From assembly GCA_964412815.1 (NCBI GenBank), contig CAYPQF010000038.1, positions 11,284 to 75,283 of the forward strand: 64,000 nucleotides of DNA, read 5' to 3'. The notes under the pieces are model-generated. The model was given only the letters and a program-made list of their open reading frames with translations. It was not told the DNA's origin and ran no database searches. The position numbers were made by a program, and so were the translations under genes. This DNA is from an uncultured Gammaproteobacteria bacterium. GTDB lineage: Bacteria > Patescibacteriota > Microgenomatia > UBA1406 > GWC2-37-13. Of the stretch, positions 3,112 to 64,000 are shown piece after piece; position 1 is the first letter of the stretch; each line of letters opens with the position of its first letter.

Positions 3112-3132
3112 GCAGCCATTATACCCGTTGAA

Positions 3133-4285: not shown

Positions 4286-5053
4286 ATGGAATATATTCTC
4301 CCGGTATATAAACCAGTTGGTGAAACTCCACTGGATACACTCAACAGGCTGCGAATCGAACAGCCACGCTACCGGGAGGCAACGCTGGGTTATGCCGGAC
4401 GGCTTGACCCCATGGCTTCCGGAGTACTTCTGGTACTGGTAAATGAAGCAAACACCAATCGCAAAGAACTGGAGCGTCTGGACAAAGAGTATGAGTTTTC
4501 GTGGATTCCCGGAATCACCACAGATACGTACGATCTTATGGGTCTGGTTACCCGCATCCAGCCGGTACAGTCACCGCTCGAACCGCAACAGATGCGTGAG
4601 CAGTTGAAGCGGTATAGGGGGAGTTTCGATCAACCGTATCCCCCATACTCCGCTGCCCGAGTCAATGGCAAACCGCTGTACTACTGGGCCCGGGCCGGTA
4701 AAATCGACGCAGTACCACGGCCCTCAAAAACTGTCACCATTTCGTCGATCAAGCTTGACGGAATTACTGAATTAAGCGGGGAGGAATTGCTCAACAAATG
4801 TACCACTCAAATAGAACAGGTCCGGGGAGATTTTCGTCAGAAAGAGATAATCCAGCGCTGGGAGGAGGAACTTAAACCGTATCCCGCCCATCGATGGAGA
4901 GAGTATCACGGTACGTGTGTCTGTAGCAGCGGCACCTATATCCGCAGTCTGGTAGACAGCATCGGAGCCGATCTCGGTACCGGCGCTGTTACCTCTGCAA
5001 TTACCAGAACACGGGTGGGATCGTATACCCTTACACCCATGCCGCAAGGATAA
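4286..5053 (+). CDS. truB: tRNA pseudouridine synthase B-like
   Basis: MEYILPVYKPVGETPLD... plus the catalytic-Asp motif GYAGRLDPMASGVLLVLV. Start at ATG 4286, 6 nt after TATAAT 4274-4279. Confidence 0.8.
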   Translation: MEYILPVYKPVGETPLDTLNRLRIEQPRYREATLGYAGRLDPMASGVLLVLVNEANTNRKELERLDKEYEFSWIPGITTDTYDLMGLVTRIQPVQSPLEPQQMREQLKRYRGSFDQPYPPYSAARVNGKPLYYWARAGKIDAVPRPSKTVTISSIKLDGITELSGEELLNKCTTQIEQVRGDFRQKEIIQRWEEELKPYPAHRWREYHGTCVCSSGTYIRSLVDSIGADLGTGAVTSAITRTRVGSYTLTPMPQG

Positions 5054-5438
5054 TCGCCATTGTCAGAGTGGCGACCAGGTGGTACGCAACAGAAATAACG
5101 TATACCTTAATTGACTGATTTTCGTATAGTACCGCAGTCGCAAGGGGAGGAGCAGTCAATGCGGCCCACAGCAACAAACCCGATTCCAAAGCTCCGTCAA
5201 CCGTTGTGATATTCAGCTTGTTTAGAATCAGAGCTAATCCGGTGGCCATTACCAGTGCCACAACAATCATCGAGAGCATAGCTTTTTTTGCTGCTTCCGC
5301 ACTAATCTCACCCGGCTTAATTCCCCGTTCCTGCATCCACAGATTGCCAAATAATATCGGAGAGTACCATGCAGCGCCGATACCCATATATGCAACAGCT
5401 GCAAGGAGGACCGCAAAAAGATTGATGTCAGAAAACAT
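5031..5438 (-). CDS. DUF1761-like small membrane protein
   Basis: 135 aa, four TM segments. The N-terminus LLAAVAYMGIGAAWYSPILFGNLW is as I recall for DUF1761. Confidence 0.5.
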   Translation of the reverse strand: MFSDINLFAVLLAAVAYMGIGAAWYSPILFGNLWMQERGIKPGEISAEAAKKAMLSMIVVALVMATGLALILNKLNITTVDGALESGLLLWAALTAPPLATAVLYENQSIKVYVISVAYHLVATLTMAIILAAWV

Positions 5439-13961: not shown

Positions 13962-14156
13962 CTAAAGATTCTTTCTTCTCTCCTTCAGAGCAGCGATTTG
14001 TGCATCGAGCTCCTTTAATTCTGCTTTACATCCATCAATCTCGCTTTGCCACCCACCAATAGCTGCACGCATGTTTGGATCACGCCGATCAGCATTTCTT
14101 ATCAGGTCGATAAGATTCCTGATCTGTGCCGAAATAAAACCCTTCTGGCTATACAA
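13962..14156 (-). CDS. small coiled-coil hypothetical protein (TTG start)
   Basis: 64-aa ORF whose TTG start overlaps by 8 nt the stop of an unlisted 27-aa ORF (14149-14232, MSRWKSTRDIERRMKQAEREAIKGEIV). That upstream ORF has a GGAGGA Shine-Dalgarno. Confidence 0.35.
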   Translation of the reverse strand: MYSQKGFISAQIRNLIDLIRNADRRDPNMRAAIGGWQSEIDGCKAELKELDAQIAALKERRKNL

Positions 14157-14311
14157 TCTCGCCTTTTATAGCTTCACGTTCAGCCTGTTTCATGCGTCGC
14201 TCGATATCACGAGTCGATTTCCACCTGCTCATGAAGTCCTCCGTATAGACTATAGACAAATAAGGATAAAAATTATACAATAACATTAATTATTATTCAA
14301 TACGATGTTAT

Positions 14312-14875
14312 ATGAATCCTTTGATTATTAAAAGTAGCCAAACCTATAGAACCGTATCAAGGTATACGCATTTAATAACTCTAATAAAAAAAATTTTTGA
14401 TTTAATTCCTGAAGATACATCTAAACTTTCAGAGATTACTATATCCAAAATTGATGCTGGAGTTTATGTAGATATATACTCTAATATTTTTTATAAGGAT
14501 GAAGTTATGGCTCATATTGGAAAAATAAACAAAAAACCTCCACGTGCCATCAAAGACAAGGTCCGATATCCTTTTGAAATTGAAATTCAGGCATATAGTG
14601 ATCCAGAAACTGAAGATGAATTTCTAAGCCTTGTAAAGAAACATCCTAAAAAATTCTTTAATCACGAAGTCAGGTATTATTTTGGAGAAGATACAATTAT
14701 TAAAACAATCGAGATTCCAGAGGAGATCAAAACAAATAAAAAACCACTTGATTATTATCCTTTGTATTTATCAAATATTACACCAGGTGATGTGGCATAT
14801 ATACAACGAATTATTGATTTTGCTCTATACAGGCTTGAGGAGTACTGGAAGGTTCAAACCGAAATTAATAGATAA
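14312..14875 (+). CDS. hypothetical protein in AT-rich island
   Basis: 187-aa ORF rich in K/I/Y/N codons, inside a strongly AT-rich block. No family recognised. Confidence 0.5.
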   Translation: MNPLIIKSSQTYRTVSRYTHLITLIKKIFDLIPEDTSKLSEITISKIDAGVYVDIYSNIFYKDEVMAHIGKINKKPPRAIKDKVRYPFEIEIQAYSDPETEDEFLSLVKKHPKKFFNHEVRYYFGEDTIIKTIEIPEEIKTNKKPLDYYPLYLSNITPGDVAYIQRIIDFALYRLEEYWKVQTEINR

Positions 14876-14883
14876 TAATTTCA

Positions 14884-15096
14884 TTAAAGAAAGTTGCAAT
14901 GACCACATTTTTTCAAAACACCTTCAACGATGCAGTAGTTAACATTATCCCCATAATTCCACACTTCTCCAAAATCTTTATTACTGGTGGAAAAAGTGAT
15001 TTTACTACTTGGAAATCCCTTCGTAATCATACGTTGGTTATGGGACATACCTATATCTACATGCCTATCTATAACATCATTTAAATCTCCTTTCAA
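14884..15096 (-). CDS. hypothetical protein, possibly 5'-truncated
   Basis: The frame stays open upstream to 15212 (QFKKNDERSYFIPGSVPKKGKFLTVDDCKNIIKYLKTLN...) without an ATG. Only a TTG at 15096 is available. It lies directly beside the IS remnant. Confidence 0.35.
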   Translation of the reverse strand: MKGDLNDVIDRHVDIGMSHNQRMITKGFPSSKITFSTSNKDFGEVWNYGDNVNYCIVEGVLKKCGHCNFL

Positions 15097-23369: not shown

Positions 23370-24524
23370 TTATTGTACTGAAATCGTAATAGTGTTTCGC
23401 ACCTCTTCTGCGAGCGCTTCTGCTGCGATCACCGTCGCAGCAAGCACGGTAATATGCCCCATCTTGCGACCGGGCTTTTCCTCTGTTTTTCCATACCAGT
23501 GCAGGTACACCTCCGGATGGTGTTTGAGGATCTCCAGATTCCCCAATTGAGCCGGAGCAACTTTTACCCCGAGAATATTTTTCATCACTGCGGCCTGAAC
23601 TGAGGGACGGATAGCGGTACTGCCAACCGGCAGTCCGGTAATGGCACGCAGGTGGTTCTCAAACTGCGATGTTTTACAGGCTTCGATCGTATAGTGACCT
23701 GAGTTATGAACCCGGGGCGCAATTTCATTCAGGAGGATACCTTCCACGGTCTGGAACAGCTCAATTCCGAAGACACCGGCACCTGGAAGTACATGAAGTG
23801 CACTTGTTACCAGTGTCTCAATCTGCTGCTGTTCGCGGGCAGAGAGTGCGGCCGGAAGCCGTACTACATCACACACATTGTTCTGCTGAACTGTCTCGAC
23901 TACCGGATAGAAGTGCACCTGTCCGTCTTTCTCTTTCACCACCATCACTGCCAGTTCCCGGGTAAAAGGCACATCCCGTTCGACAAAGAGCCCCCGGGTA
24001 TCCCGGGAAAATTCGGCAAATGCCGGCTCGATATCCGATGCCGACCGGATGACCCGGTTTCCCTTTCCATCATAGGAGGCAAAAGATTGTTTGAGGTGGA
24101 GCGGATATCCCCAGTCTGTGGCAGCCTGTGTTAAGTCCGCACTACTGGTAACCGCGCGAAATGGAGCAACCGTCACTCCATGCGTTGATACCACTTCTTT
24201 TTGTTTTAGTTTGTTCTGGATCAGGGAGATGGCCCGGGGATGGGGCTGTATTTCCACTCCTTCGTCGTGCAGTTCCTGAAGGGTTCTGGCTGAGACATGT
24301 TCCAGTTCGATGGTGATCAGATCACACTGCTGTGCCAGCGTATGGATTGCTTCAGAGTCTTCGTAGCCACCCGGAAGATGGGTAGCTCCGGCAAGCACGG
24401 CGGGCGCCTGAGGCAGTGGGTCCAGCACGGTGATATCAAACCCCAGTTGACGCGCGTACGGCACCATCATCTGCGCCAGTTGTCCGCCACCGATTATCCC
24501 GATATGGTGCCGTTTTTTTTCCAT
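23370..24524 (-). CDS. purK: N5-carboxyaminoimidazole ribonucleotide synthetase
   Basis: IGIIGGGQLAQMM and an ATP-grasp core, immediately upstream of purE. Confidence 0.9.
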   Translation of the reverse strand: MEKKRHHIGIIGGGQLAQMMVPYARQLGFDITVLDPLPQAPAVLAGATHLPGGYEDSEAIHTLAQQCDLITIELEHVSARTLQELHDEGVEIQPHPRAISLIQNKLKQKEVVSTHGVTVAPFRAVTSSADLTQAATDWGYPLHLKQSFASYDGKGNRVIRSASDIEPAFAEFSRDTRGLFVERDVPFTRELAVMVVKEKDGQVHFYPVVETVQQNNVCDVVRLPAALSAREQQQIETLVTSALHVLPGAGVFGIELFQTVEGILLNEIAPRVHNSGHYTIEACKTSQFENHLRAITGLPVGSTAIRPSVQAAVMKNILGVKVAPAQLGNLEILKHHPEVYLHWYGKTEEKPGRKMGHITVLAATVIAAEALAEEVRNTITISVQ

Positions 24525-25945
24525 GCAGTTAGGGCGTGAGAAATGATATCTGCCATCTGTCGGGCATGAGGAGCGGCCTGACCAATGTGATGCAAGGGAT
24601 CAAACGCGCTGGAGATAGCTTGGGAAGAGCAGTACTTTGCAATCTTCGGATCGTTGGTGATCAACTGCTGCAGCGGATTATCCTGTCCTTGTGCAATTGC
24701 ATCCCAGGCTGTCATCGCATGCTGTTTAAGCACTTCGTGGAGTTTTTGCCGGTTTCCCCCGTGTTTGACTGCCTGCATTAAGACCCCTTCGAGCGCGGAG
24801 AACGGGGCATATTTGTGCAGGTTCTGGGCTATCGCCCGCTCATCGATAGTCATCTGTTCGACCAGACGGATCGCGGTCTTCAGAATCTCACTCACTGCCA
24901 GAAACGCATCGGGGACCACCAGGCGGCGATTGGCCGAATCATCCAGGGTACGTTCCAGGTAGGAGTGTTGTACATTTTCGTGGAGTACAACCGGTAACTG
25001 GGCTACATACCGGGCCAGTGAACATATTTTCTCTGACGCTACCGGGTTTCGCTTAAATGGCATGGCGGACGACCCCACCTGTTGTTTTTCAAACGGCTCA
25101 CGCCATTCACCAAACGCCGGGGACTGCAGAATTCTCAGGTCCGCGGCAAACTTGGCGATAACTGAGGCGATCCCTGCCAGCGACTCGATAATCTGAACTT
25201 CGTGCATTCTGCTCCCGATCTGCGTAGATACCGGAGCAGCAGTTAGCCCCAGTTTCGAGAGTACCGCTGCCTCCATCTCTTCCGGGTTCATGGGGGAATC
25301 GTGCAGGAGAGCGGTATAACTCGCCATCGATCCAACTGCTCCTTTCATTCCTTTGGCACGCAGTTTTGATTTGACGGTAAGCAGCTGGTCGAAGGTTGTA
25401 AGCAGTTCCTGGGCATAAAACGCAAAGCGATATCCTACCGTGGTTGGTTCTGCCGGTTGCAGATGGGTGTAGGCCATACAGGGCAGATCGGCGGTATCGT
25501 GAATCCGTTTTCTGAAGGCTGTCAACAATGCGGCTGTCTGTTCTTCTATCAGCGCGAGCGCTTCTTTCAGCCGGAGCATCTCAGCGTTATCAGTTATGTC
25601 CATACTGGTTGCTCCCAGATGGAGCTTCCCGCCGCCTTTTTTAGCTTTTTCAGCATACTCGGTGATTGCGGCAAAGACATCGTGACGGGTTTGTTGCTCG
25701 ATCTCCTGAATTCGTTCAATGTCGATATCCCGTTCGTGATACTGGAGATCATCCAGTTCTTCGTGGGAGATCAACCCGGCTTTAGACTGTACGGTCGCAA
25801 GGGTCACCCAGATTCTGCGCCAGAGTTCTACTTTGTGAAGTTCGCTAAAGACTGCGCGCATCTCAGGGGTGCCATATCGCCAGGAAAAGGTAGATTGATA
25901 GGATGCAGAGGGAGCAACTTCTTCGGTTGACTGCCGTGTGCTCAT
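24494..25945 (-). CDS. purB: adenylosuccinate lyase
   Basis: Fumarate-lyase signature GSSAMPFKRNP. Start set at MSTRQ (ATG 25945), forming an ATGA overlap with the folD stop. The 67 codons upstream in the ORF track run antisense-free through folD and are not credible. Confidence 0.9.
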   Translation of the reverse strand: MSTRQSTEEVAPSASYQSTFSWRYGTPEMRAVFSELHKVELWRRIWVTLATVQSKAGLISHEELDDLQYHERDIDIERIQEIEQQTRHDVFAAITEYAEKAKKGGGKLHLGATSMDITDNAEMLRLKEALALIEEQTAALLTAFRKRIHDTADLPCMAYTHLQPAEPTTVGYRFAFYAQELLTTFDQLLTVKSKLRAKGMKGAVGSMASYTALLHDSPMNPEEMEAAVLSKLGLTAAPVSTQIGSRMHEVQIIESLAGIASVIAKFAADLRILQSPAFGEWREPFEKQQVGSSAMPFKRNPVASEKICSLARYVAQLPVVLHENVQHSYLERTLDDSANRRLVVPDAFLAVSEILKTAIRLVEQMTIDERAIAQNLHKYAPFSALEGVLMQAVKHGGNRQKLHEVLKQHAMTAWDAIAQGQDNPLQQLITNDPKIAKYCSSQAISSAFDPLHHIGQAAPHARQMADIISHALTAWKKNGTISG

Positions 25946-26793
25946 GCGTGTTCCGGAGCCTTCTGCTGCAATGCTGCCTCGACTACGTTTTTGAGCAGGA
26001 AGGTAATGGTTAACGGTCCAATCCCATTGAGGGTGGGACAGTACAATTTTGCTTTCTGGGCAATCTCTTCTTCGTGAATGTCCCCAAAGAGCTGCGTTTC
26101 TCCATCCACTTCTTTTGCATCTACACCTACACCGATTACATAGCAACCTTCTTTGATATTGGAACCATGTACGATATGTTCTTTTCCAACAGCCGAGATC
26201 ACCAGGTCACCAGAACGGATTATCTCATCCGGATTCTGAGTAGTTGAGGAGACACAGACTGGCTCAAATCCTTTTTTCTTAAGCAGCGTAAGGGTGGGCT
26301 GGCCCGCGGTTCTGCCTTTTCCCAGTACGACAATTTTTTTTCCTGCGAGAAATGCTTCCGGCGACGGAAAACCTTCGATCCGGGAAAACTCTGCAATCAT
26401 CTCCCAGATAGCCAGCGCCGTTGCTTCGGTAAACGGGGATTCCGGCAGAAACCCGTCCACATCCTTTTCAGGAGCGACCTGTTGAATCAGCTCTTCGGCT
26501 GGCCACGACTGGTAGACCGGCAACTGAATAATCATCCCGTGGATGGCTGGATTGATATTTGCGGATTGTACATACGAACGGAAGGTCTCCAGCTCCTGTT
26601 CCTGAAACCGGACAACCGTCGCGGTAATTCCCAGTTTAGTTGCTACCTTCGCTTTGAGTGAGATGTAGACTTCGGAGCTCTGGTTACTGCCGGCACGTAA
26701 AATAACCAGATGAGGAGCCAGTTCGTGTTCACGAATAGTTGCTGCCAGTTCTTCGCGGATTCGTTTTGCAATGGGCTTTCCTTTTACAATCAT
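25942..26793 (-). CDS. folD: bifunctional 5,10-methylene-THF dehydrogenase/cyclohydrolase
   Basis: 283 aa. The KGKPIA...IR start, VVLGKGRTAGQP (Rossmann loop) and GIGPLTI near the C-terminus fit FolD. Confidence 0.85.
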   Translation of the reverse strand: MIVKGKPIAKRIREELAATIREHELAPHLVILRAGSNQSSEVYISLKAKVATKLGITATVVRFQEQELETFRSYVQSANINPAIHGMIIQLPVYQSWPAEELIQQVAPEKDVDGFLPESPFTEATALAIWEMIAEFSRIEGFPSPEAFLAGKKIVVLGKGRTAGQPTLTLLKKKGFEPVCVSSTTQNPDEIIRSGDLVISAVGKEHIVHGSNIKEGCYVIGVGVDAKEVDGETQLFGDIHEEEIAQKAKLYCPTLNGIGPLTITFLLKNVVEAALQQKAPEHA

Positions 26794-29021: not shown

Positions 29022-29870
29022 TTAGCCAAAATACGCCACGGCATTCTGAAACAAGGTAAATCCGGCGGCATACTCCGGGTTCGGTGTTCCCGACCGGACA
29101 TGGTGTTCTTTGAGGATCTGCCAGTGTGGCTGCTGGGTAAAAAACATACCCCGTTCGGGGTGCGGCATCAAACCCAGTACCCGTCCGGACGGATCGGTTA
29201 TACCCGCAACATCATCCAGCGCACCATTGGGATTGGCCGGGTAGTCCTGATACTGACAGACCGTTCCGCAGGTATACCGCAGCGCAATCTGATTGTTTTT
29301 TTTGAGTCGGACCAGCACCTCCGGTTCTACATAGAACTTTCCTTCCCCGTGCGCGATGGGGAGAGAGAACTCGGTTAATCCCGTGAGCCAGGGAGACTGA
29401 TTGGCAACAACCAGATCTACCCAGCGGTCCAGATAGAGTCCGCCACTGTTTTTCATGAGGGCGGCAGAACGCTCTCCATATGCGTTATCGCATGATGGTA
29501 CCAGCCCCAGATTTACCAGAATCTGAAAGCCGTTACAGATACCGATCGTCAGCGTATCTCGCTGCACAAACTGAGAGAGCTGCTCCCAGAGGGTGTTCCG
29601 GAGCTTATTGGCATATGCGTTCCCGGAGCCGGTATCGTCTCCATACGAAAACCCGCCGGGAATTGCAGCAATCTGAAACTGTTTCAGTTTTTCCGGCGCG
29701 GCAATCAGATCATTAATATGGATAATCGTGGGAGTGGCACCAGCCAGTTGGAATGCATGAGCGGTCTCTTCTTCGCAGTTTAGACCATAGCCGGCAAAGA
29801 TAAGCGCGGCAGGCTGCACACCAGATTGACGAACAGCGGATTGCGCTTGTGATTTGATTGTTTTTTTCAT
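29022..29870 (-). CDS. purQ: FGAM synthase, glutaminase subunit
   Basis: GICNGFQIL (Cys nucleophile), AHGEGKF and MPHPER. Start at MKKTIK (29870) forms an ATGA overlap with the purL stop. Confidence 0.85.
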   Translation of the reverse strand: MKKTIKSQAQSAVRQSGVQPAALIFAGYGLNCEEETAHAFQLAGATPTIIHINDLIAAPEKLKQFQIAAIPGGFSYGDDTGSGNAYANKLRNTLWEQLSQFVQRDTLTIGICNGFQILVNLGLVPSCDNAYGERSAALMKNSGGLYLDRWVDLVVANQSPWLTGLTEFSLPIAHGEGKFYVEPEVLVRLKKNNQIALRYTCGTVCQYQDYPANPNGALDDVAGITDPSGRVLGLMPHPERGMFFTQQPHWQILKEHHVRSGTPNPEYAAGFTLFQNAVAYFG

Positions 29871-32842
29871 AATGGTTGGGCAAATCGTGATCGATAGGTC
29901 TTGAGCAGATGTTCGACACTGGTATCGATAACGGGTAACTGCTGCTGATGACGGGTACCGAGTAGTGCCACCCGTGATGTTCGGCTGACCGTGCCAATAC
30001 ACGCAATTGATTGGTCTGCCATAATGGTCTCAAACTGCGCCTTATGCTGCGGCGCAACAGTAACAACAATGCGTCCCTGGCTTTCCGAAAATAACAGATG
30101 ATGGTAACTGGACCAGCTACCGGGGATGGCATCCAGCTCCAGCTGCAAGCCCTGTTTTCCTGCCATCGCCATCTTGGCAAACGCAATTGCCAGCCCGCCC
30201 CGGGTCACGCTGATGGCTGAGGCAATAATCTGTTGCTGGACTGCCAGATGGTAGCGGCGATATAACTCGCGGTTGATTTCGGCGTCTACGCACGGGACAG
30301 ATGCTCCTACAAAACCTTTCATGGCGTAATACTCGGATCCACCCAGTTCATCGTCTGTTGCTCCCAGCACATAGACCAGATCATCTGCGAACTTGGTATC
30401 AATCGAGATCGCCTGAGAAACATCGTCAATAATGCCAATACTGGAGATCAACAGTGTGGGTGGAACTGAGATCTTGACGGGATGGCCTTCGGCTGAGTAG
30501 CCGGTAAAGTCGTTAAACATACTGTCTTTTCCAGAGATATATGGGGCATTATATGCCACCGCATAGTCGTAACACGCTTCTACTGCCTGTTTAAGCTGAT
30601 ACAACCGTTCGGGTTCGTTGGCGCTGCACCAGCAGAAGTTATCCAGCAGAGCGATTTTATCCGGGTGGATTCCGGCAGCTACCAGATTCCGGATGGCGGT
30701 ATCGAGACTGCTTGCCGCCATATGGTAGGTATCGATATCGCTGTAGCGTGGGTACAGACCCTGGGACAGGCCGACTCCCTTTTGAGCTGTCAGAAGGGGG
30801 CGCGTAATGGTGACCTCGGCGTTCACCCGCCCCCGGCCCTGCAACGGCTTGAGCACCGATCCGGCCTGAACTTCGTGATCGTACTGCTGCGACACAAACT
30901 CCGTGCTGGACAACGAGTATCGTTGTAACAGGCGGAGCAGATCGTCGGTGTAGGATTCCTGCATCGGCAATCGAGGCTCCGGAGCTGTTGAGACGACAGT
31001 ATCGGTCTCCAACGGCCGTGATGGCAAACCATCGTGGAGAAATTCCATGCTCATGTCCAGAATAATGCGTTCGTGATGTTCCACAACACACCGTCCCGAA
31101 TCGGTAAAGGTACCAATAACCGTTGCCTCTACCCCCCGGGCGGCTAACAGACTATGGAGCTCTTCCCAATGCTCCGGTAGGACGGCAAGCGTCATCCGTT
31201 CCTGTGATTCGGAGATCCAGATCTGCCAGGGGGACAGCCCCGGGTACTTTAAGGGAATACGTTCCAGTTGTACCACGAAACCGCCGGATTCTTTGGCCAT
31301 CTCTGCAACAGAACAGGATAGTCCTCCGGCACCGTTATCGGTGATGCTGGTGTAGAGCCCGCGATCACGCGCCTCTTTGATGAGCGCATCGCTGAGTTTT
31401 TTCTGGGTAATGGGATCGCCAATCTGTACCGCCGTAGCCGGACTGCCTTCGTCCAGTCCTTCCGAAGAAAAAGTTGCCCCATGGATTCCGTCCAACCCTA
31501 CCCGTCCGCCGACCATCACAATGTAGTCGCCGGGGCGGGCCTGCTTCTGATGTGACAGGCGTTGATCCGGCGGCAGAGTACGCGGGATCAATCCAACGGT
31601 ACCCACAAAGACCAGCGGTTTACCCTGATAGCGATCATCAAAGAGCATAAAGCCCTGTGGTGTCGGGATACCCGAGCAGTTGCCTCCTTCGTTAACGCCG
31701 GCAATCACCCCGTCCATAATTCGTCGAGGCGAGAGCATCGGCATGGTCAGTCCGGCATCCCGGTAGAGCGGTCTTTCCAGGTCCGGAGTGGCAAAACAGA
31801 ATCCGTACCGGTTGATTACCGGCTTGGCCCCAAGCCCGAATCCCAAAGCATCTCGATTTACCCCTACAATGCCGGTGATGGCCCCGCCAAACGGATCCAG
31901 TGCCGATGGTGTATTGTGTGTCTCTACCTTGTCAGTTACCAGATACTCGTCATCAAAGCTTATAGCACCGGCATTATCGGTAAAAACCGAGACACAAAAC
32001 GGCTGTGTCTCTCCCTGTGCGGTGCGCGCCTGCATCACATCCCGGGTAGCCCGCTTGATGTAATGTCGGAACAGCCCATCTTCGATCTCGTCAATCGGAT
32101 CGGCAAAGATAGTGTGTTTACAGTGTTCCGACCAGGTCTGCGCGATAGACTCCAGTTCGATATCGGTGGGGTCCCGGCCCAGCTCTGTAAAGTAGGCCTG
32201 AATTGTTTTCATAGAGGCCAGGTCTAGTGCGAGTGGCCCACGTCGACTGCCATCCGGATTGGGAATCCCTTCTTTACCAATGCGCCTCAGTTCCTCGTCC
32301 GGAACCCGGAGCGATACATTGGTCACCTCTTGTTGTTCTGCGAGATGGACTTCCGGAACCGGCAGTACATGCGCCCCCTTCCGGTAGCCAGCTCCGTTTT
32401 GTAGACTGATACGTTGAATCAGCGGGTTGTAAAGGGTTGCTGCAAAGGTCTGAACGGTTGCTCTGGGAACGGGATCATGAATCAACAGTAGCCGCGATGA
32501 ATAGACTGTCTGTGTATCAGAGAGCGTCAGGTGCAGCCCGTCAATTAAGGTTTCCCGTGCGGTGGTTCCAATGTTATCCGTGACTCCGGGCAGATATCCG
32601 ATCTCCACCGCCCACTCAACCGGTTGCGTACCAACTGGCCTGTCATATAAGGCCTGCTGGACAATCGGATTGTGCAGCAACCGGACTGCTGCTTCTTTTT
32701 GGGAACTGGTTAGGGGAATGGTAAGGGTGTAGACATCAACCACCGAGACCGATGCACCGGTTAATTGAGTCTGAAACGCGGCACCGCGGGCATCGCCGGT
32801 GTGCGTTATCACTTCGATTCTGGTACTGTGTTGTTGCTTCAT
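29867..32842 (-). CDS. purL: FGAM synthase synthetase subunit fused to two N-terminal PurS-like repeats (PurS-PurS-PurL)
   Basis: 991 aa. The PurL landmark WSEHCKHTIF sits near residue 240 rather than the ~50 I recall for small PurL. Residues 1-150 contain two ~75-aa repeats ending LLHNPIVQQALY and LYNPLIQRISL, which are PurS-like. No separate purS is present in the operon. Confidence 0.85.
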   Translation of the reverse strand: MKQQHSTRIEVITHTGDARGAAFQTQLTGASVSVVDVYTLTIPLTSSQKEAAVRLLHNPIVQQALYDRPVGTQPVEWAVEIGYLPGVTDNIGTTARETLIDGLHLTLSDTQTVYSSRLLLIHDPVPRATVQTFAATLYNPLIQRISLQNGAGYRKGAHVLPVPEVHLAEQQEVTNVSLRVPDEELRRIGKEGIPNPDGSRRGPLALDLASMKTIQAYFTELGRDPTDIELESIAQTWSEHCKHTIFADPIDEIEDGLFRHYIKRATRDVMQARTAQGETQPFCVSVFTDNAGAISFDDEYLVTDKVETHNTPSALDPFGGAITGIVGVNRDALGFGLGAKPVINRYGFCFATPDLERPLYRDAGLTMPMLSPRRIMDGVIAGVNEGGNCSGIPTPQGFMLFDDRYQGKPLVFVGTVGLIPRTLPPDQRLSHQKQARPGDYIVMVGGRVGLDGIHGATFSSEGLDEGSPATAVQIGDPITQKKLSDALIKEARDRGLYTSITDNGAGGLSCSVAEMAKESGGFVVQLERIPLKYPGLSPWQIWISESQERMTLAVLPEHWEELHSLLAARGVEATVIGTFTDSGRCVVEHHERIILDMSMEFLHDGLPSRPLETDTVVSTAPEPRLPMQESYTDDLLRLLQRYSLSSTEFVSQQYDHEVQAGSVLKPLQGRGRVNAEVTITRPLLTAQKGVGLSQGLYPRYSDIDTYHMAASSLDTAIRNLVAAGIHPDKIALLDNFCWCSANEPERLYQLKQAVEACYDYAVAYNAPYISGKDSMFNDFTGYSAEGHPVKISVPPTLLISSIGIIDDVSQAISIDTKFADDLVYVLGATDDELGGSEYYAMKGFVGASVPCVDAEINRELYRRYHLAVQQQIIASAISVTRGGLAIAFAKMAMAGKQGLQLELDAIPGSWSSYHHLLFSESQGRIVVTVAPQHKAQFETIMADQSIACIGTVSRTSRVALLGTRHQQQLPVIDTSVEHLLKTYRSRFAQPL

Positions 32843-47248: not shown

Positions 47249-48769
47249 TTACTGCACCAGTACTGTTGTACCAACCTCCGCCCATTGGTAGAGCTGCGTC
47301 ATCTTGTCGAGCGGCGTGTTTATACATCCGTGACTGCCAACACTTAAGTAGTCCATCGTTCCATACACCGTCCTCCACGACGCATCATGGAGTCCGTACC
47401 CCTGGTAAAACGGCATCCAGTAGGTAACCATGTTGTCATAAAAAATACCCGGAAATGGCGATCGCATCCGGAAATTCATCGTTTTGAGGTAGATCGCAAA
47501 TTGACCTTTCACGGTTTCAAATCCAGCTTTGCCGGTGGTAACGGGGACAGGTTCCGTGAAAATAGAGATACCGTTTTCGTACGCGTATAAACGTTGTTTG
47601 GCAATATCGACCAGGATCAGTTTGGGGACATCAACCGGAGGGACCGGAATTCCTGACTCTTGTTCGCGCCGTTTTTGTTCTGCCAACAGGGCCTGCCGCT
47701 CCTGTTCTTCGATCTCCTGTTTTTTCGAACGGGTTGTTTCCAGTACCGGATAGACATCCGTGGCTGCCAGCTGCTGTAACTGCGTACTGCTCGCTTCTAC
47801 TGACTTTACCGTAATCAGATTGGTAGCGGATGATTTTAACTGATTCAGTTTGGCAATCTGTTCAGAAAACCCTGACCGTTTACTAAAAAAAGCCAGTAAT
47901 GTATCTGCTTCTGACAGCGCTGCAGTGACGTTGGTCAGCACCAGGTCACGTTTTGCCCGTTCCATCGACGAAAGCAGCTGTCCGATGGTATCTTCGCAGG
48001 TCTTGATTTCAGCAACCAGTGTATCAAACTCCATGGTTCCCAGCTTGGACTCAAGCGAGGTTGTATAGGCTATCCATTCATCACGTTTGGCTATAGTAAA
48101 GTTGACCGAGGTAGCCAGATTGGATTTGAGACGATCTTTGCAGTCACTCAGTTCTGCCCGCATTTCGGTGGTTACTTTGACTTCACGTTCGGTAATCTGT
48201 TTCCGGTAATCAGAGACCTGCTCAACACTCAGTTCGCCTTTGGCTGAAACATCTTTCACACTCAGCAGAAAGCCCTGAACTTCGTCCTGCGAAGGGTACT
48301 GATACTCCTGAGCAATGGTGTGTTTTCGCTCCAGTTCTGCTAAATCCTGATTAAACGCATCCTGTTCCTGTTTGAGGACAGTACTGTACTGTGCATTGAT
48401 TTGCTTATTAAGACCTTCCAGTTCGCTTTCTGCAGCAAATAAATACCATAAAAAGGCACCCTGTCCTGATGAAGCTATTTTCTTGTCCGCACCAGAGAGC
48501 TGTGCATAGTACTCCTGAGCATTGTAACCGTACTCTTCGACGACCGCAATCTTTGCCGTTGCGTCTTCGAGCAGAAGTTTCGTCCGTGCCTGCATTTTAA
48601 GGCCAAAGAAATAATAGAGCGCACTACCCGCTCCGATTAAAACCAGAAGAGTCAGGACAATCATGATGGTGGATAATCTGCGCGGCTGCATCTGAAGCGG
48701 AGCAACCTGATTGTGCTGAGACGGATTCTGCCCTGGACTAAAAACAGTTCCCTGATCCGCAATCGTCAT
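47249..48769 (-). CDS. L,D-transpeptidase (YkuD domain) with long coiled-coil N-terminal region
   Basis: The C-terminal GYGLHDASW...VGSHGCINTP is the YkuD catalytic His/Cys motif. One N-terminal TM is followed by ~330 aa of coiled coil. Confidence 0.8.
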   Translation of the reverse strand: MTIADQGTVFSPGQNPSQHNQVAPLQMQPRRLSTIMIVLTLLVLIGAGSALYYFFGLKMQARTKLLLEDATAKIAVVEEYGYNAQEYYAQLSGADKKIASSGQGAFLWYLFAAESELEGLNKQINAQYSTVLKQEQDAFNQDLAELERKHTIAQEYQYPSQDEVQGFLLSVKDVSAKGELSVEQVSDYRKQITEREVKVTTEMRAELSDCKDRLKSNLATSVNFTIAKRDEWIAYTTSLESKLGTMEFDTLVAEIKTCEDTIGQLLSSMERAKRDLVLTNVTAALSEADTLLAFFSKRSGFSEQIAKLNQLKSSATNLITVKSVEASSTQLQQLAATDVYPVLETTRSKKQEIEEQERQALLAEQKRREQESGIPVPPVDVPKLILVDIAKQRLYAYENGISIFTEPVPVTTGKAGFETVKGQFAIYLKTMNFRMRSPFPGIFYDNMVTYWMPFYQGYGLHDASWRTVYGTMDYLSVGSHGCINTPLDKMTQLYQWAEVGTTVLVQ

Positions 48770-48862
48770 ACTGTTCCATTATAGCGTTCTGAACCTGTTG
48801 CTGGCAAGCCGAGTAGAATGATAATAACGTTCTCTTAACTGTCTCTTTGTTATGATACTACT

Positions 48863-49337: not shown

Positions 49338-49601
49338 TTATTCACGGTTTTCTTTTGGCTTGGCAACATTAACAACCAGCGGACGTCCTTCGACATCTTT
49401 CTGGTGCATTGCATCAACTGCTGCCTGTGCTTCTTCTTCGGTTGAGAACGTAACGAAACCGAATCCTTTTGAACGACCAGAATGACGCTCAGTGATTACG
49501 ATTGCTTCGACGACTTCTCCAAACTGTGAGAACAGTTCACGGAGTTGCTCATCACGAATTGACCATGGTAAATTACCAACGTAGAGTTTCTTATTATCCA
49601 T
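49338..49601 (-). CDS. RRM-type RNA-binding protein
   Basis: RNP2 KLYVGNL and RNP1 KGFGFVTF. 87 aa. Confidence 0.85.
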   Translation of the reverse strand: MDNKKLYVGNLPWSIRDEQLRELFSQFGEVVEAIVITERHSGRSKGFGFVTFSTEEEAQAAVDAMHQKDVEGRPLVVNVAKPKENRE

Positions 49602-49881
49602 TCATCTCCACCCGCCTTTCACATTTGGAATAAATTATTAATCCAAATGAAGTCTTGCTCTGGAGATTCTTTTCATCGCAGATTAAAACATTCATTCTAA
49701 GAGTATATTATACCATGTTAAAACACGGGTGTTTGTGAGGAATATCATATTGAGGCTAAAAAGGAGTGTTTTTAACGGCTATTTAGCGCAAAAAGAACGA
49801 AAAAACGTTTGATATATAAAACTCTGGGATGAAATTCTATGGAGGGGATGAACAATAAATAGTTACTGAATGTAGTGGTAT

Positions 49882-49908
49882 CTCCGGCGAGGGGGTGCCT
49901 CGCCGGAG
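49882..49908 (-). terminator. GC-rich hairpin after the high-GC cassette (no U-tract)
   Basis: CTCCGGCGAG-GGGGTGC-CTCGCCGGAG, a perfect 10-bp stem, ~45 nt past the ORF2 stop. Confidence 0.45.
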
Positions 49909-49951
49909 CGTGCCACTGGAAAACAGGGTGTCGAGCCGGCCGTGAACAGAG

Positions 49952-50299
49952 CTAGCCGCGGACGCCGCTGCCGTCGCTCGACAGGCTGGTCAGCGGGGCG
50001 CGCGGGTTGGACTCCACCTCCTCCTCGGCCAGCACGCGGGCGCGCTGGAGCGACTTCATGATCTTCTCGATCTGGAGCGGGCTCTGCACCCGGATCAGCT
50101 CCTCGAGGATCTTGAGCAGCTCCAGGTTGGTCGCCGGCAGCTGGAGGTCGTCCTCCGGCAGGCCGATCTGCACGAGCATGCGCCCGTAGACGCGGATGAT
50201 CTCGATCTGGCCGCGCAGCACGACCTCGAGGACACGCGGGTTGTTGAGGTCGATAGTCCGCCCGTCGTTGATCAGCTGGCTGATGCCGCTGATCAACAT
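49952..50299 (-). CDS. hypothetical protein, high-GC cassette ORF2 (115 aa)
   Basis: MLISGISQLINDGRTIDLNNPRVLEVVLRGQIEIIRVYGRMLVQIG... 113 of 115 codons end in G/C. The ATG overlaps the ORF1 stop (ATGTTGA). No family recognised. Confidence 0.6.
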   Translation of the reverse strand: MLISGISQLINDGRTIDLNNPRVLEVVLRGQIEIIRVYGRMLVQIGLPEDDLQLPATNLELLKILEELIRVQSPLQIEKIMKSLQRARVLAEEEVESNPRAPLTSLSSDGSGVRG

Positions 50300-50451
50300 G
50301 TGTAGAGGGGCACCGTGGCGCCCCGCAGGTTGCCGGTGGTCAGCTCGTTCAGAGCGTTGCTCGACAGACCGTTCCCCGTCAGGGCGCCGCGGAGCTGCAG
50401 AACCGTGCGGTTGTCCATCTCGAGCGGCAGGGTGGGGTACTCCTGAGTCAT
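50293..50451 (-). CDS. hypothetical protein, high-GC cassette ORF1 (52 aa)
   Basis: MTQEYPTLPLEMDNRTVLQLRGALTGNGLSSNALNELTTGNLRGATVPLYTC. Preceded by the Shine-Dalgarno AGAGGAGAG with a 6-nt spacer. It may be the N-terminal part of a frameshifted single gene. Confidence 0.5.
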   Translation of the reverse strand: MTQEYPTLPLEMDNRTVLQLRGALTGNGLSSNALNELTTGNLRGATVPLYTC

Positions 50452-50508
50452 CGCGATCTCTCCTCTGTTTGTTAGGTGCTTCTTTCCAGTGGCTTTTAAG
50501 CCTATAGT

Positions 50509-50537
50509 ATAATACCACTATCTATATCTAATTGCAA
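50509..50537 (-). promoter_or_regulatory. promoter of the high-GC cassette
   Basis: TTGCAA (50532-50537), 17-nt spacer, TATTAT (minus strand, 50509-50514), in AT-normal sequence. Confidence 0.5.
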
Positions 50538-50590
50538 TAATCCCTATCAATTATGGGTTGACAAGCGAAACAAAAAGTACTACATTTGGA

Positions 50591-50606
50591 GTAAACAAGT
50601 GTTCAC
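50591..50606 (+). promoter_or_regulatory. LexA (SOS) box upstream of the DnaQ/GIY-YIG gene
   Basis: GTAAACAAGTGTTCAC is the reverse complement of GTGAACACTTGTTTAC, the same GTGAAC-N4-GTTTAC word as the two boxes at lexA. It lies 11-13 nt upstream of the -10 (TATAAA/TAAAAT, 50617-50624). Confidence 0.7.
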
Positions 50607-50630
50607 CAGTTGACCGTATAAAATCTGCGT

Positions 50631-52046
50631 ATGCTTCCCAACACATTTTCCTTTGTCGATATCGAGACCACCGGCGGCAGTGTCACCGGCGATCGCATCA
50701 TAGAGATTGGTATCCTTCGCGTGGAGGATGGCAAGATTGTGGAGAAATTCGAGTCTCTGGTTAATCCTCATCATTATATTCCCGAGTTTATTACCGGAAT
50801 CACCGGTATTCGAGCTGAGGATTTAACAGGAGCTCCCACTTTTGAAGAACTTCAGGAGCGCATCTACCCCTTACTGGAAAATAGTGTATTTGTAGCGCAC
50901 AACGCCCGGTTTGACTATGGCTTTATCCGGAATGAGTTCCGACGCCAGGACTACACATTTTCAGCAAAGGTATTGTGCACCGCCAAACTATCCCGTCTGC
51001 TCTATCCTCATCACCGTAAACACAATCTGGACAGCATTATTCAGCGTTTCGGCTTTGCTTGCGAACGTCGTCATCGCGCGTTTGATGACGCGGCAGTTCT
51101 GTGGGACTATTACCAGGCTATGCTCGATGAGTTTGGTGTTGAAGCTATGCTCAAGGCCGTTCAACAGGTCATGAAGTTGCCCAGCACCCCGATTCACCTC
51201 TCACAAGAAGAACTGGACAGATTGCCGGAGATGCCCGGCATCTACGAGTTTTATGGCGATCAGGAAGTGCCGCTGTACATCGGTAAAAGTACCAATATCC
51301 GTGAACGGGTACTCTCTCACTTCTCGGGGGACCATGCGCGTTCGGCCGAGATGGATATCTCACAACAGATTAAGCGCATTGAGACTATTCCCACTGCCGG
51401 AGAACTGGGAGCATTATTGCTGGAGTCGGAGCTGGTCAAGCATAAACAACCGGTATACAACAGACATCTACGTATTAAAAACGTGCATACGGTGATTTTT
51501 GAAGAACGCACCCCGGAAGGGTATAAAATACCGAAAATAGCAGAGATGTCCGAGATTCCCGGAGACACAGTTGCCTCAATTCTTCATATTGCCAAGTCAA
51601 AACGGCAAGCAAAAGAGTTTCTGGAAGAGCTCTGCAGGAAACACAGCCTGTGCCGGAAGCTAATGGGCGTTGAGAAAACAAAAAGCAGCTGTTTTTCCTA
51701 TAAACTGGGGCAGTGTCACGGCGCCTGTGTAGGGGAAGAGCTGGTTGATTCGTATAATCTCCTCTTTGATGTCGTTTTCGAGAACTACCGGGTACTCCCC
51801 TGGCCCTATTCAGGTAAAATTGTGATTCAGGAAGAAAACCAGATTATTGAGAAAAAAGAGTTGTTTGTGTTCGAAAACTGGTGTTTTCTCGGCAAGGTGG
51901 ACGAAGAGTCTGTGTACGACATACCTGAGATGCGCTTTGAACACTGGTTTGAGTACGATATTTACAAAATTATCCGTGGATTTCTGCGTAAAAAACCTTC
52001 ACGGGTAGTTGATCTTTCGGTTCTTTCTACTGCGTCATCTCAATAA
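50631..52046 (+). CDS. DnaQ-like 3'-5' exonuclease fused to GIY-YIG/UvrC-like nuclease (Cho-like)
   Basis: Exo motifs FVDIETTG, VAHNARFDYGF and HRAFDDA. GIY-YIG motif PGIYEFYG...PLYIGKSTNIRERV, then a UvrC-like middle region. Confidence 0.8.
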   Translation: MLPNTFSFVDIETTGGSVTGDRIIEIGILRVEDGKIVEKFESLVNPHHYIPEFITGITGIRAEDLTGAPTFEELQERIYPLLENSVFVAHNARFDYGFIRNEFRRQDYTFSAKVLCTAKLSRLLYPHHRKHNLDSIIQRFGFACERRHRAFDDAAVLWDYYQAMLDEFGVEAMLKAVQQVMKLPSTPIHLSQEELDRLPEMPGIYEFYGDQEVPLYIGKSTNIRERVLSHFSGDHARSAEMDISQQIKRIETIPTAGELGALLLESELVKHKQPVYNRHLRIKNVHTVIFEERTPEGYKIPKIAEMSEIPGDTVASILHIAKSKRQAKEFLEELCRKHSLCRKLMGVEKTKSSCFSYKLGQCHGACVGEELVDSYNLLFDVVFENYRVLPWPYSGKIVIQEENQIIEKKELFVFENWCFLGKVDEESVYDIPEMRFEHWFEYDIYKIIRGFLRKKPSRVVDLSVLSTASSQ

Positions 52047-62112: not shown

Positions 62113-63363
62113 CGGCTTCTGAGGCTCTCGTTCAACAACATCTCCTGCCACCTGTTCCCGTTTAGCCAGCAGGATAAAAGGAATGGCAATACTTTGAATC
62201 AAACTTGCAGCTGCATATGATGCGGGGTAACTCCAGACATCTGCCACCCGTCCCAATACCGGCTGAATCACAATTCCTCCACTCGAAGCCATCAGAGAGT
62301 CAAACGAGATGACAGTCGCACGCTGTTTGGAAGGGATCTGACTATTCAGATACGTCTGACGTACCGGCATCAACGCGGCAGTAAGCAGTCCAAGCACAAA
62401 GATAAGTATTAAAGCAATCCAGAAACTGGTTGTCATCGACACTGCCAGCAGGATTGCTCCATTGATTACGATTCCAGTATATAACAATGTTGTCCGTCGC
62501 TGGAAAAACTGGATGAGCCGCGAAACTGTCATTCCACCGATAATTTGAGCGGAAGCCACAATGGCAGCGACCAATCCAGCCACCCCATAAGCTGAAGAAT
62601 CTCCATATAACTCAAGTAAAAACGGCTGCAGCGCATAGAACACGTAAAAACCGACTCCGGCGGTAAACGGGGCCGCAATCATGAGCCATCGTACTGGAGG
62701 ATTTTTGAGACCATACTCAAGTGATTTTGAAAGAGTAACAGAAATTTCCTGTACCGGATTTTTACCGCCTGAAGGGGTAAAACCCAGATCCTTCATCAAA
62801 AACCATGCGGTGGCAAAGTTTAAAAGGAGCACTGCGGAACGAAGAATATATGGGACTCCGAGGTTAGTATATTGAGCAATCATTCCACCGGCAACAGATC
62901 CGGTTAACATGGCAATGCCCCCTACAACCTGCCCCTGTGCAAACACAGACTCCATCTTGCCGGTATAGCCTGTTGCCTCCAATGCATCCACCAGCCATGC
63001 TTCCAGAGCCCCGGAAAAGAAGGTAAAGCCTAACCCCAGCAACAACGAAGCTACTGCCCACCCCCAGAATGGTCCCTGTATCTGCCACATAAACAGATAA
63101 AGAGCAGTAGAAAGCGCCAGGGTAATGGTGCCCCACAGATAGGAGACTCTCCGGCCATAGGTATCTGCGATCACGCCAGTAGGAATCTCAAACAGAACCT
63201 GTCCGACTGTAAAAAAGGCATTGGTAGCAAAGGCTTCAAAGTTACTTAAGCCTGCGTCCAGGAGAAAGATAGTGTTAATGCCCCAGATAAAAGAAGCAGC
63301 CAGTGTATTTCCCAACACCAGCATCACATACGTTCTCTGAATGTGTTGAGGAGTATACTGCAT
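62101..63363 (-). CDS. MFS transporter
   Basis: About 12 TMs with a GVIADTYGRR-type loop between TM2 and TM3. Confidence 0.75.
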   Translation of the reverse strand: MQYTPQHIQRTYVMLVLGNTLAASFIWGINTIFLLDAGLSNFEAFATNAFFTVGQVLFEIPTGVIADTYGRRVSYLWGTITLALSTALYLFMWQIQGPFWGWAVASLLLGLGFTFFSGALEAWLVDALEATGYTGKMESVFAQGQVVGGIAMLTGSVAGGMIAQYTNLGVPYILRSAVLLLNFATAWFLMKDLGFTPSGGKNPVQEISVTLSKSLEYGLKNPPVRWLMIAAPFTAGVGFYVFYALQPFLLELYGDSSAYGVAGLVAAIVASAQIIGGMTVSRLIQFFQRRTTLLYTGIVINGAILLAVSMTTSFWIALILIFVLGLLTAALMPVRQTYLNSQIPSKQRATVISFDSLMASSGGIVIQPVLGRVADVWSYPASYAAASLIQSIAIPFILLAKREQVAGDVVEREPQKPLRA

Positions 63364-63371
63364 CTACTGCA

Positions 63372-64000
63372 TTATACCAGTTTCAACGGCAGGCTGACCG
63401 TAAAGGTAGTTCCTTTGTTCAGTATACTTTGCACAGAGATTGAGCCATTATGTCGAGCAACTATCTCGCGAGAGATATAGAGTCCAATGCCCAGCCCTGA
63501 ATAGACCGGCTGTTCCTCGTTATACGCACGATAAAAGCGCTCAAATATCTTTGAGCGTGCATGAGGAGGGATGCCCATGCCGAAGTCCTGTACATGAATT
63601 TGTACTGTGTCCCCCTCCTGCTCCATCCGAACTACTACCCGATCGGCGTCGGGAGAATATTTTATCGCATTGGTGAACAGGTTAATCACTACCTGACCAA
63701 TTCGTTCCTGATCTCCACAGATGGTTACAGGTATCTTGTTTTCAAAGAGAATCTGATGGGTATCAGTTACATGTTGAATATCCTCAATTATCCCCTCTAT
63801 GGTCTTATCCAAAGAGAACTGTGTATCTTTGTAATCAAGCTTTCCCTGCGCAGCTTTTGAGACATCAAGCAGATCGGTAATGAGATTTGTCAGTTTTGAG
63901 ATCTGCTGATCCATTTTTCCCAGATACTTTACGACACTGGGATCTGTATCTTTTGCAACGAGCTTTTTTAGAATCTGGGTATACCCTTTGATACTGGTCA
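63372..64000 (-). CDS. sensor histidine kinase, C-terminal part (5' end beyond the window)
   Basis: The frame is open to the window edge. N-box NLFTNAIKYS, G-boxes DFGMGIP and GLGIGLYISREI. Confidence 0.85.
   Translation of the reverse strand, partial: TSIKGYTQILKKLVAKDTDPSVVKYLGKMDQQISKLTNLITDLLDVSKAAQGKLDYKDTQFSLDKTIEGIIEDIQHVTDTHQILFENKIPVTICGDQERIGQVVINLFTNAIKYSPDADRVVVRMEQEGDTVQIHVQDFGMGIPPHARSKIFERFYRAYNEEQPVYSGLGIGLYISREIVARHNGSISVQSILNKGTTFTVSLPLKLV

Follow-up and report, generated by a model that had tools for sequence, protein, structure and literature searches.

Between the RRM and DnaQ-Cho genes of the 64-kb stretch of contig CAYPQF010000038.1 analyzed here (the window), a segment of high G+C content at 49880-50451, hereafter the cassette, had been described in an earlier note as carrying two overlapping open reading frames (ORFs) of foreign composition. 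Comparison with related loci indicates that these ORFs, ORF1 and ORF2, are fragments of one gene that is whole elsewhere. We consider it probable that the window carries a broken copy of a single, old, lineage-specific orphan gene, which looks foreign to its host and whose G- or C-ending codons have been maintained.

The compositional anomaly is as abrupt as first described. In 200-nt windows, G+C content rises from 0.35-0.38 (49600-49899) to 0.62-0.70 (49900-50499) and falls again to 0.42-0.47 beyond, so that values of about two-thirds contrast with 0.35-0.48 in the flanks. These profiles bear out the sharp boundaries claimed near the ORF1 start codon and the downstream hairpin. The eight most G+C-rich 300-nt windows of the 64 kb all fall in the cassette (maximum 0.683; window mean 0.481, standard deviation 0.056), which is the sole stretch of at least 0.62 G+C in the window and in ~55 kb of related loci. 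The background genome has ~48% G+C, compared to 62-70% at 49880-50451.

We reproduced exactly the counts of G- or C-ending codons given earlier, i.e., 113 of 115 in ORF2 (G+C at first, second, and third positions, GC1/2/3, of 0.67/0.35/0.98; GC3 0.983) and 46 of 52 in ORF1 (0.60/0.49/0.87). The neighbors use mixed third positions, as had been stated: GC3 averages 0.51 +/- 0.08 over the 57 other ORFs of the window and reaches 0.62 at most outside the cassette. The adjoining RRM gene, the expression of which is likely to be high, has a GC3 of 0.34; high GC3 is therefore not the "optimal" usage of this host.

Related loci carry one gene

Relatives of the DnaQ-Cho neighbor with >90% identity were present on other contigs, which led to the related loci, and that of a sister strain was located through its identical RRM protein. 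Gene order is identical in the fetched contigs: antiporter, CorA, YkuD, MsrB, RRM, X, DnaQ-Cho, phosphorylase, where X is the cassette gene. X is a single ORF of 245 amino acids (aa) in L001 (JGI 3300045911, a 746-kb contig), L002 (SRR30649437), and L003 (SRR17161169), and of 246 aa in L004 (SRR32929652) and L005 (ERR15113708). These five loci represent three related lineages (L001/L002, L003, and L004/L005). In the sister strain, L006 (ERR16016679), it is a single ORF of 159 aa. The search for the cassette in related genomes that the earlier note had proposed thus recovered it, intact except in L006, at the same RRM-X-DnaQ locus. The intact alleles have ~67-69% G+C, a GC3 of 0.94-0.98, and GC1/2/3 of 0.70/0.40/0.97, and all alleles have the promoter, leader, Shine-Dalgarno (SD) sequence, and downstream hairpin in common. 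Every recovered relative with this locus carries the unit, with no empty site among them.

L006 belongs to the same species: it is 99.8% identical to the window along 5.7 kb toward the RRM gene and 96.3% identical along 4.5 kb toward DnaQ. When further alleles were sought through the neighboring proteins, the contigs obtained either stopped short of the cassette or represented known loci. Neither peptide patterns nor a 24-nt pattern taken from the 3' block found a match in GTDB genomes, JGI metagenomes, or IMG/VR, and scanning GTDB with DnaQ-Cho likewise gave nothing; with these patterns, the host lineage was not found among GTDB species representatives.

The window copy as a damaged allele

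Judged by alignment, the window copy appears to be a damaged allele of this one gene, altered in two places (Table 1). A net insertion of two nucleotides, an extra CT at ~50304-50307, falls in codons 47-50, with a G>T change also nearby. The extra CT is absent from L006 and from all full-length alleles; apart from these two differences, the L006 and window alleles agree at every position of the gene's first 300 nt, and the L006 frame is intact. Further along, intact alleles carry two copies of the 7-bp repeat GACGACC, 237 bp apart, between which the window copy has lost residues 102-180. Two of the features by which a pseudogene is recognized, loss of coding sequence and disruption of the frame relative to intact orthologs, are thus seen.

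The apparent two-gene layout follows from this damage. The ATGTTGA overlap of ORF1 and ORF2 is present in the sequence as described, and corresponds to ...CAC ATG CTG ATC... read two bases out of frame; the frameshift, together with the native Met51 at which ORF2 begins, produces both the overlap and the semblance of two ORFs. The earlier note had offered, as one option, a single gene of ~165 aa broken by one frameshift. This was right as to the single gene and the frameshift; the unbroken form is 245 aa long, and 79 codons have also been lost.

The 237-bp deletion is probably real and not an assembly error, because a microhomology of 7 bp is too short for k-mer collapse. The in-frame deletion in L006 is not the same one: residues ~153-235 are missing and 102 to ~152 retained, whereas the window copy loses 102-180 and keeps 181-245. 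Since two strains of the same species carry independent large deletions, one of them also frameshifted, the gene would seem to be dispensable or under remodeling in this species. The window copy is itself a case of ordinary gene decay, and the gene family is the interesting part.

Codon usage and age of the gene

The codon choice of the cassette is close to uniform (GAG 51/51, CAG 39/39, AAG 8/8, ATC 44/44, TTC 11/11; TTA, TTG, and CTA absent) and opposite to that of the host, which prefers GAA, AAA, GAT, and TTT. Because of these G/C-ending codons, and because the protein is poor in lysine and rich in arginine, leucine, and alanine, we infer that the cassette originated in a high-GC genome. 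Neither a donor lineage nor a homolog outside the gene's own lineage was found in the searched collections, the coverage of which is incomplete, as they did not return the L006 allele.

The acquisition does not appear to be recent, since at least four lineages with diverged housekeeping genes have the unit in synteny. Between lineages, 47-53% of the fourfold degenerate sites of neighboring host genes differ (synonymous divergence, dS, of 0.4 to ~3), compared to 9-32% of those of the cassette over the same comparisons. Changes between G and C make up 67-92% of the fourfold-site changes in the cassette and 14-20% of those in the host genes (Fisher p 2e-7 to 6e-9). A neutral sequence under the mutation spectrum of the host would have lost much of its G/C excess, mainly through changes from G/C to A/T. 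That synonymous change is slow, and almost all of it between G and C, argues that selection or another G/C-favoring process keeps the third positions G or C. The earlier proposal of a very recent acquisition from a high-GC donor therefore stands as regards foreign codon usage, which fits; its recency does not agree with a shared locus whose neighbors differ at 47-53% of sites, and no donor was found.

There are two ways out of this puzzle: either G/C is held in place by selection or a biased process, or divergence of the alleles took place elsewhere, under high-GC pressure, and they then entered on repeated occasions. We favor maintenance in place because the promoter, leader, and 41-nt 3' block are common to all alleles and because no outside carrier was found in the searched collections.

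Recombination and rate of evolution

Divergence of the cassette is out of step with that of its flanks. Between the window and L004, the flanks are 96% identical and the cassette 84-89%, whereas between L001 and L003 the flanks are 79-90% identical and the cassette 91-97%. The window allele is a mosaic, with its N-terminal part closer to the L001 type and its C-terminal part closer to the L004 type. Protein alleles differ by up to 30%, and the nonsynonymous divergence (dN) of the gene is up to five times that of its neighbors; dN/dS is 0.3-0.6 in the first two-thirds and 0.9-1.4 in the last third, ratios that are inflated by the depressed dS.

Several details of the locus were also recorded. 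The identity between the window and L006 falls from 99.8% to 96.3% exactly across the cassette (window ~50003-50144), which suggests a recombination break there. L004 has two copies of the final 11 nt of the gene (TCCGCGGCTAG) at 941-1005, 49 nt apart with ~47% G+C between them, and L003 has a 35-nt insertion at ~5050-5090, between the stop codon and the conserved 3' block; past replacement of alleles may have left both as scars at the 3' junction. An AT-rich spacer (window 49790-49880) separates the hairpin from the conserved block upstream of the RRM gene and exists in two unrelated versions, one in the window, L004, and L006 and the other in L001 and L003. Finally, the SRR32929652 assembly breaks at the cassette: contig 4886 breaks off 210 nt upstream of the gene, and the far side lies on contig 3951.

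The protein product

The gene appears from its sequence to behave as a protein-coding one. Its composition is strongly periodic over three bases, G+C at second positions being only 0.40. The alleles differ by five indels or deletions, each a multiple of three in length, and the few A/T-ending codons are grouped in codons 2-29, as expected at a translation start. The product is a protein of ~27 kDa and 245-246 aa that is restricted to this lineage and acidic (isoelectric point 4.8); besides being poor in lysine, it is poor in phenylalanine, tyrosine, and tryptophan. No signal peptide or membrane segment was predicted in it. Conservation is found in the first 101 and the last 13 residues, which survive in every allele.

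The protein is seemingly an orphan. Word-indexed searches of 5.8 billion clusters with ORF2 and the full-length protein returned only the family itself, and a HMMER search of 1.84 billion representatives with a two-sequence profile returned only P0006 and P0001 (the window's own ORF2). Neither ORF1, ORF2, nor the full-length proteins matched Pfam, NCBIfam, or PADLOC, even at E <= 10; PHROGs, a profile search of the PDB, and tblastn against phage and plasmid collections likewise gave no match. Two AlphaFold runs on shallow alignments predicted an all-helical protein of nine or ten helices, at a confidence too low to use (predicted local distance difference test score, pLDDT, of 45.8 and 44.7). 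A Foldseek search with the first model had no match at E <= 0.001, and its best TM-score of 0.39 was disregarded. Protein searches, of a kind that the earlier note had called for, thus place the protein in no known family.

The gene may contain an ancient internal duplication of ~115-122 aa, although this is unproven. Two DNA repeat families lie 366 nt apart in L004, and offsets of 113 and 122 aa are among the highest-ranking ones in self-comparisons of all alleles; direct tests returned E = 0.014 with BLASTP and E = 0.018, at a probability of 2.5%, with hhalign. The short conserved C-terminal tail recalls encapsulin cargo proteins, although its likeness to known loading peptides is loose; a shell gene was sought only among the annotated neighbors. 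We rejected a 340-aa antisense ORF in L001 as a gene: with G/C at the sense third positions that frame is open by default, and it is broken in the window.

The expression unit

The G+C-rich segment, read from the minus strand, is organized as one self-contained expression unit with promoter, leader, one ORF, and 3' hairpin (Table 1). The promoter described in the earlier note was found; it is of the sigma-70 type, and a TG also precedes its -10 hexamer. The strong SD sequence is present as AGAGGAGAG, and the leader has the G+C content of the host; it also contains a small 5' hairpin, GGCUUAAAAGCC. An 11-nt arm in the leader (TTTCCAGTGGC) is complementary to a second arm (GCCACTGGAAA) in the 3' untranslated region (UTR). 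This complementarity is present in all alleles, shortened to 10 nt in L001 and L004. The 3' hairpin, like the absence of a U-tract, agrees with the earlier description, except that we measured its arms at 11 nt. A terminator scan called no T-tract terminator at the hairpin, which occurs once in the 64-kb window and, with the adjoining repeat arm, forms a 41-nt block that is 100% identical across all five alleles. It stands between the cassette and the co-directional RRM gene, and would serve as a terminator, stabilizer, or insulator. We rejected a transposon as the explanation of the flanking inverted repeat, there being no target-site duplication and no transposase-like protein.

Table 1. Positions in the window of the cassette gene, its damage, and its expression signals.
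Feature	Position	Strand	Basis
"ORF1": codons 1-46 as in the ancestral gene, followed by six out-of-frame codons and a stop	50293..50451	-	Codon-by-codon comparison with intact alleles
"ORF2": starts at native internal Met51; native residues 51-101 joined directly to 181-245	49952..50299	-	Alignments
Frameshift site: coding strand ACGGTGCCCCTCTACAC (window) vs ACGGGGCCC--CTACAC (L006)	50304..50312	-	Alignment of window and L006
Deletion junction: 237 bp (79 codons), in frame, a single GACGACC (coding strand) left	50146..50152	-	Alignment with intact alleles
C-terminal tail LT(T/S)L(S/A)SDG(S/Q)G(V/T)RG	49955..49993	-	Alignment; in frame in every allele, including both deletion alleles
Predicted unit promoter: TTGCAA, 17-nt spacer, TG-n-TATTAT (extended -10)	50509..50537	-	Consensus scan; kept in all alleles; predicted function
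Leader of ~50 nt, host-level G+C	50452..50502	-	Sequence
Shine-Dalgarno sequence in leader	50458-50466	-	Sequence
Inverted-repeat arm in leader, 11 nt	50483-50493	-	Repeat search
Second inverted-repeat arm	49912-49922	-	Same pair in L001 and L004
G+C-rich 3' untranslated stretch carrying the second arm	49909..49951	-	Sequence and allele alignment
Hairpin at unit 3' end: perfect 11-bp G+C stem, 5-nt loop, no U-tract	49882..49908	-	Very stable stem-loop (z = -3.5)
Predicted dnaQ-cho promoter TTGACA-17-TACATT, back to back with the unit promoter	50558-50586	+	Consensus scan

Alternative explanations

The alternative that deserves most attention retains part of the earlier proposal: a very recent acquisition from a high-GC donor that has not yet ameliorated, or repeated re-acquisition or allele replacement from an unsampled reservoir, such as the partner of a putative episymbiont, with codons that reflect the mutational regime of the donor. 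Codon usage of a high-GC kind in a lysine-poor, arginine-rich protein would be expected of such a history, as would the sharp compositional boundaries, and so would the discordance of cassette and flanks in both directions. Allele replacement would further predict remnants such as the relic 11-nt end copy of L004 (49 nt downstream) and the 35-nt insertion of L003, as well as the break between the window and L006. Nevertheless, no homolog was found among 1.84 billion representatives or in the scanned collections, despite heavy sampling of high-GC bacteria. The same locus, promoter, leader, and 3' block recur in every lineage, which makes independent insertions unlikely, and a single recent event cannot explain protein differences of up to 30% between alleles. 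On balance we regard this history as rather improbable. A different possibility is that the segment functions chiefly at the level of nucleic acid, as a structured RNA or a DNA element, with an ORF that is incidental. The 3' block is 100% conserved, whereas the identity of the adjacent coding sequence between allele classes is 66-74%. All alleles have a 10-11-nt inverted repeat on either side of the ORF, dN/dS is ~1 in the C-terminal third, and G+C content appears to be what is selected. This account has to contend with the three-base periodicity and second-position G+C of 0.40, with indels that are all in frame, and with an SD sequence and a start context with fewer G/C-ending codons. Furthermore, Rfam gave nothing at the gathering score in the window, and only chance-level matches (E 0.23-0.28) in 49550-50650; two of three alleles have no excess structure over synonymous permutations, and large internal deletions are tolerated. 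We think it highly improbable.

Less credible still is that the window copy works as a two-gene module of toxin-antitoxin type, translationally coupled through ATGTTGA. The overlap is of a geometry typical of coupled genes, and both pieces keep native residues and G/C-ending codons. The layout arises, however, from the frameshift: the relatives all have a single ORF, the split stems from a +2 insertion missing in L006, which is otherwise identical over the first 300 nt, ORF2 has no SD sequence ahead of it, and no toxin, antitoxin, or defense family was matched in Pfam, NCBIfam, or PADLOC. The toxin-antitoxin layout suggested in the earlier note is accordingly rejected, and the same applies to its suggestion of an assembly artefact or chimera. 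An artefact, in which a high-GC fragment of another organism was joined in by assembly or binning, could explain the abrupt change of composition and nothing else. The same junctions, promoter, and hairpin occur in six independent samples processed by two pipelines, with cassettes that diverge while their context remains syntenic; a chimera is therefore excluded, and we give next to no credence to an artefact of either kind.

In being an autonomous promoter-ORF-hairpin unit of atypical composition and without homologs, placed between conserved housekeeping genes, dispensable, and variable between strains, the cassette resembles phage "morons" and genomic islets. Unlike these, it lies outside any prophage, with no mobility gene within 10 kb and no PHROG, phage, or plasmid match, its neighbors being MsrB, RRM, DnaQ-Cho, glucan phosphorylase, YkuD, CorA, and a Na+/H+ antiporter. 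It is also syntenic in several diverged lineages and has conserved its G/C-ending codons instead of drifting to host composition. Resemblance to type II toxin-antitoxin operons is confined to the window copy, where two short ORFs overlap by 4-7 nt under one promoter; the orthologs are monocistronic, the split is a frameshift, and there is no toxin or antitoxin fold or family. One ORF of foreign composition followed by a palindrome, with boundaries close to the ORF ends, is reminiscent of an integron cassette, yet no integrase, attI, or cassette array is present among the annotated neighbors, the promoter is its own and of host type, and the hairpin is a perfect 11-bp palindrome occurring once in 64 kb rather than an imperfect attC-like one. 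GC-biased gene conversion reportedly acts at recombination hot spots. The locus does recombine, as indicated by mosaic alleles and the identity break, and its third positions are G/C-rich; the effect is too strong, at 0.97 compared to 0.51, and stops at the start codon and hairpin. Gene conversion alone is thus a poor fit, because the effect ends sharply while the adjoining intergenic DNA has 35-40% G+C. In Streptomyces, bldA and TTA codons provide codon-dependent regulation by a rare tRNA. By analogy, a codon choice that departs from that of the genome could make the cassette dependent on particular tRNAs, although here every codon class is shifted to G/C endings rather than one rare codon; no tRNA genes were found in the 64-kb window.

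Several points weigh against the reading of an old, broken orphan gene with maintained G/C-ending codons. The +2 insertion could be an assembly error, in which case the window would hold one 165-aa deletion variant and not a pseudogene. The evolutionary comparisons cover three intact and two deleted alleles that are not independent, and recombination complicates comparison with the flanks. Repeated re-acquisition from a high-GC source would likewise give differences between G and C only, and the protein databases are incomplete enough (word-indexed searches did not return the L006 allele) that an unsampled high-GC donor or reservoir is possible. A specific mRNA fold as the reason for the G+C content found no support: permutation of synonymous codons gave z = -0.2, -0.2, and -2.5 for three alleles, i.e., no excess in two of the three, with a start region that is slightly, though not significantly, less structured. 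Both structure models are of low confidence. Lastly, the host taxon is uncertain. The host is a sparsely sampled bacterium and has a purine biosynthesis operon. Among the top matches of its PurB, those with names are mostly metagenome-assembled genomes of Patescibacteria at ~54-57% identity, and closer matches reach 59%.

A model for the gene and its product

On the reading that we prefer, that of an old orphan gene damaged in the window, the gene would have arisen in a high-GC genome and entered the lineage long ago. Its G/C third positions would since have been kept by selection or another G/C-favoring process acting on the nucleic acid, and a 237-bp loss between GACGACC repeats and a 2-bp insertion would then have split the window copy. 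As a tentative addition, which we rate as unlikely in this specific form, the ~97% of G/C-ending codons could be held by nucleic-acid selection or by ongoing gene flow from a high-GC partner organism that has escaped sampling.

The unit may drive strong expression of a non-essential, soluble, cytoplasmic helical protein, a suggestion made with low confidence. With equally low confidence, the protein may act through protein-protein contacts; its variable middle, flanked by a conserved N-terminal module and the 13-residue C-terminal tail, would suit a role in interaction or conflict. The G+C-rich body, the 3' hairpin, and the complementarity of the 5' and 3' UTRs may give an unusually stable mRNA with protected ends. 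Our best guess is a dispensable, fast-evolving accessory protein. Because of its fast evolution, mosaic alleles, and tolerated deletions and frameshift, a role in conflict or partner interaction (immunity, anti-defense, or host contact) would fit this pattern better than housekeeping.

Other features of the host window

An SD core of at least 4 nt precedes only 6 of 54 ORFs, in line with the earlier remark that SD sequences are scarce in host genes. Many ORFs have a TATAAT-like box 6-8 nt before the ATG (e.g., 2370-2392, 3111-3130, the 8751 region, 48769-48790, and 63363-63385), a spacing that implies leaderless mRNAs; most host genes thus seem to be leaderless. The RRM gene and the G+C-rich gene are among the few host genes with a leader and an SD sequence.

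The 154 nt upstream of the RRM start (49602-49755) are 98.7-100% identical over five lineages, despite neighbors that differ at about half of their fourfold sites. This block holds a 12-nt near-palindrome (CATTTGGAATAA/TTAATCCAAATG) and the predicted RRM promoter, and looks like a long constrained 5' UTR or regulatory region. Long constrained 5' UTRs are known for genes of cold-shock-type RNA-binding proteins.

The window also contains an outlier of the opposite kind. The stretch 14001-15000 has 33% G+C and includes a 187-aa ORF (14312-14875, plus strand; G+C 0.30, GC3 0.21) with no Pfam match, which may be another foreign islet. The longest ORF of PurL (29867-32842, minus strand; 991 aa) extends ~210 residues ahead of the PurL match, and that of PurB (24494-26146, minus strand; 550 aa) has ~87 extra N-terminal residues compared to relatives of 462-483 aa. 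These extensions are either mis-chosen starts in the ORF call or fused N-terminal domains.

Implications

Annotation should treat the cassette as a single allele, disrupted and shortened, of a lineage-specific gene, and neither as a toxin-antitoxin pair nor as contamination. Foreign genes are expected to drift toward the composition of their new genome. This one stayed at a GC3 of ~0.97 while about half of its neighbors' silent sites changed. Should more genomes bear this out, it would be a clean natural case for finding what selects synonymous G+C in one bacterial gene; alternatively, it could point to an unseen high-GC partner organism. Were selection the cause, it would be gene-specific selection on synonymous G+C, for which extreme mRNA stability or dependence on particular tRNAs are possible reasons. 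Were gene flow the cause, the cassette would amount to a genomic fingerprint left by the physical host of this little-known, maybe Patescibacteria-like and episymbiotic, bacterium. A strongly promoted, SD-led orphan gene in a mostly leaderless genome would offer a handle on the biology of the host.

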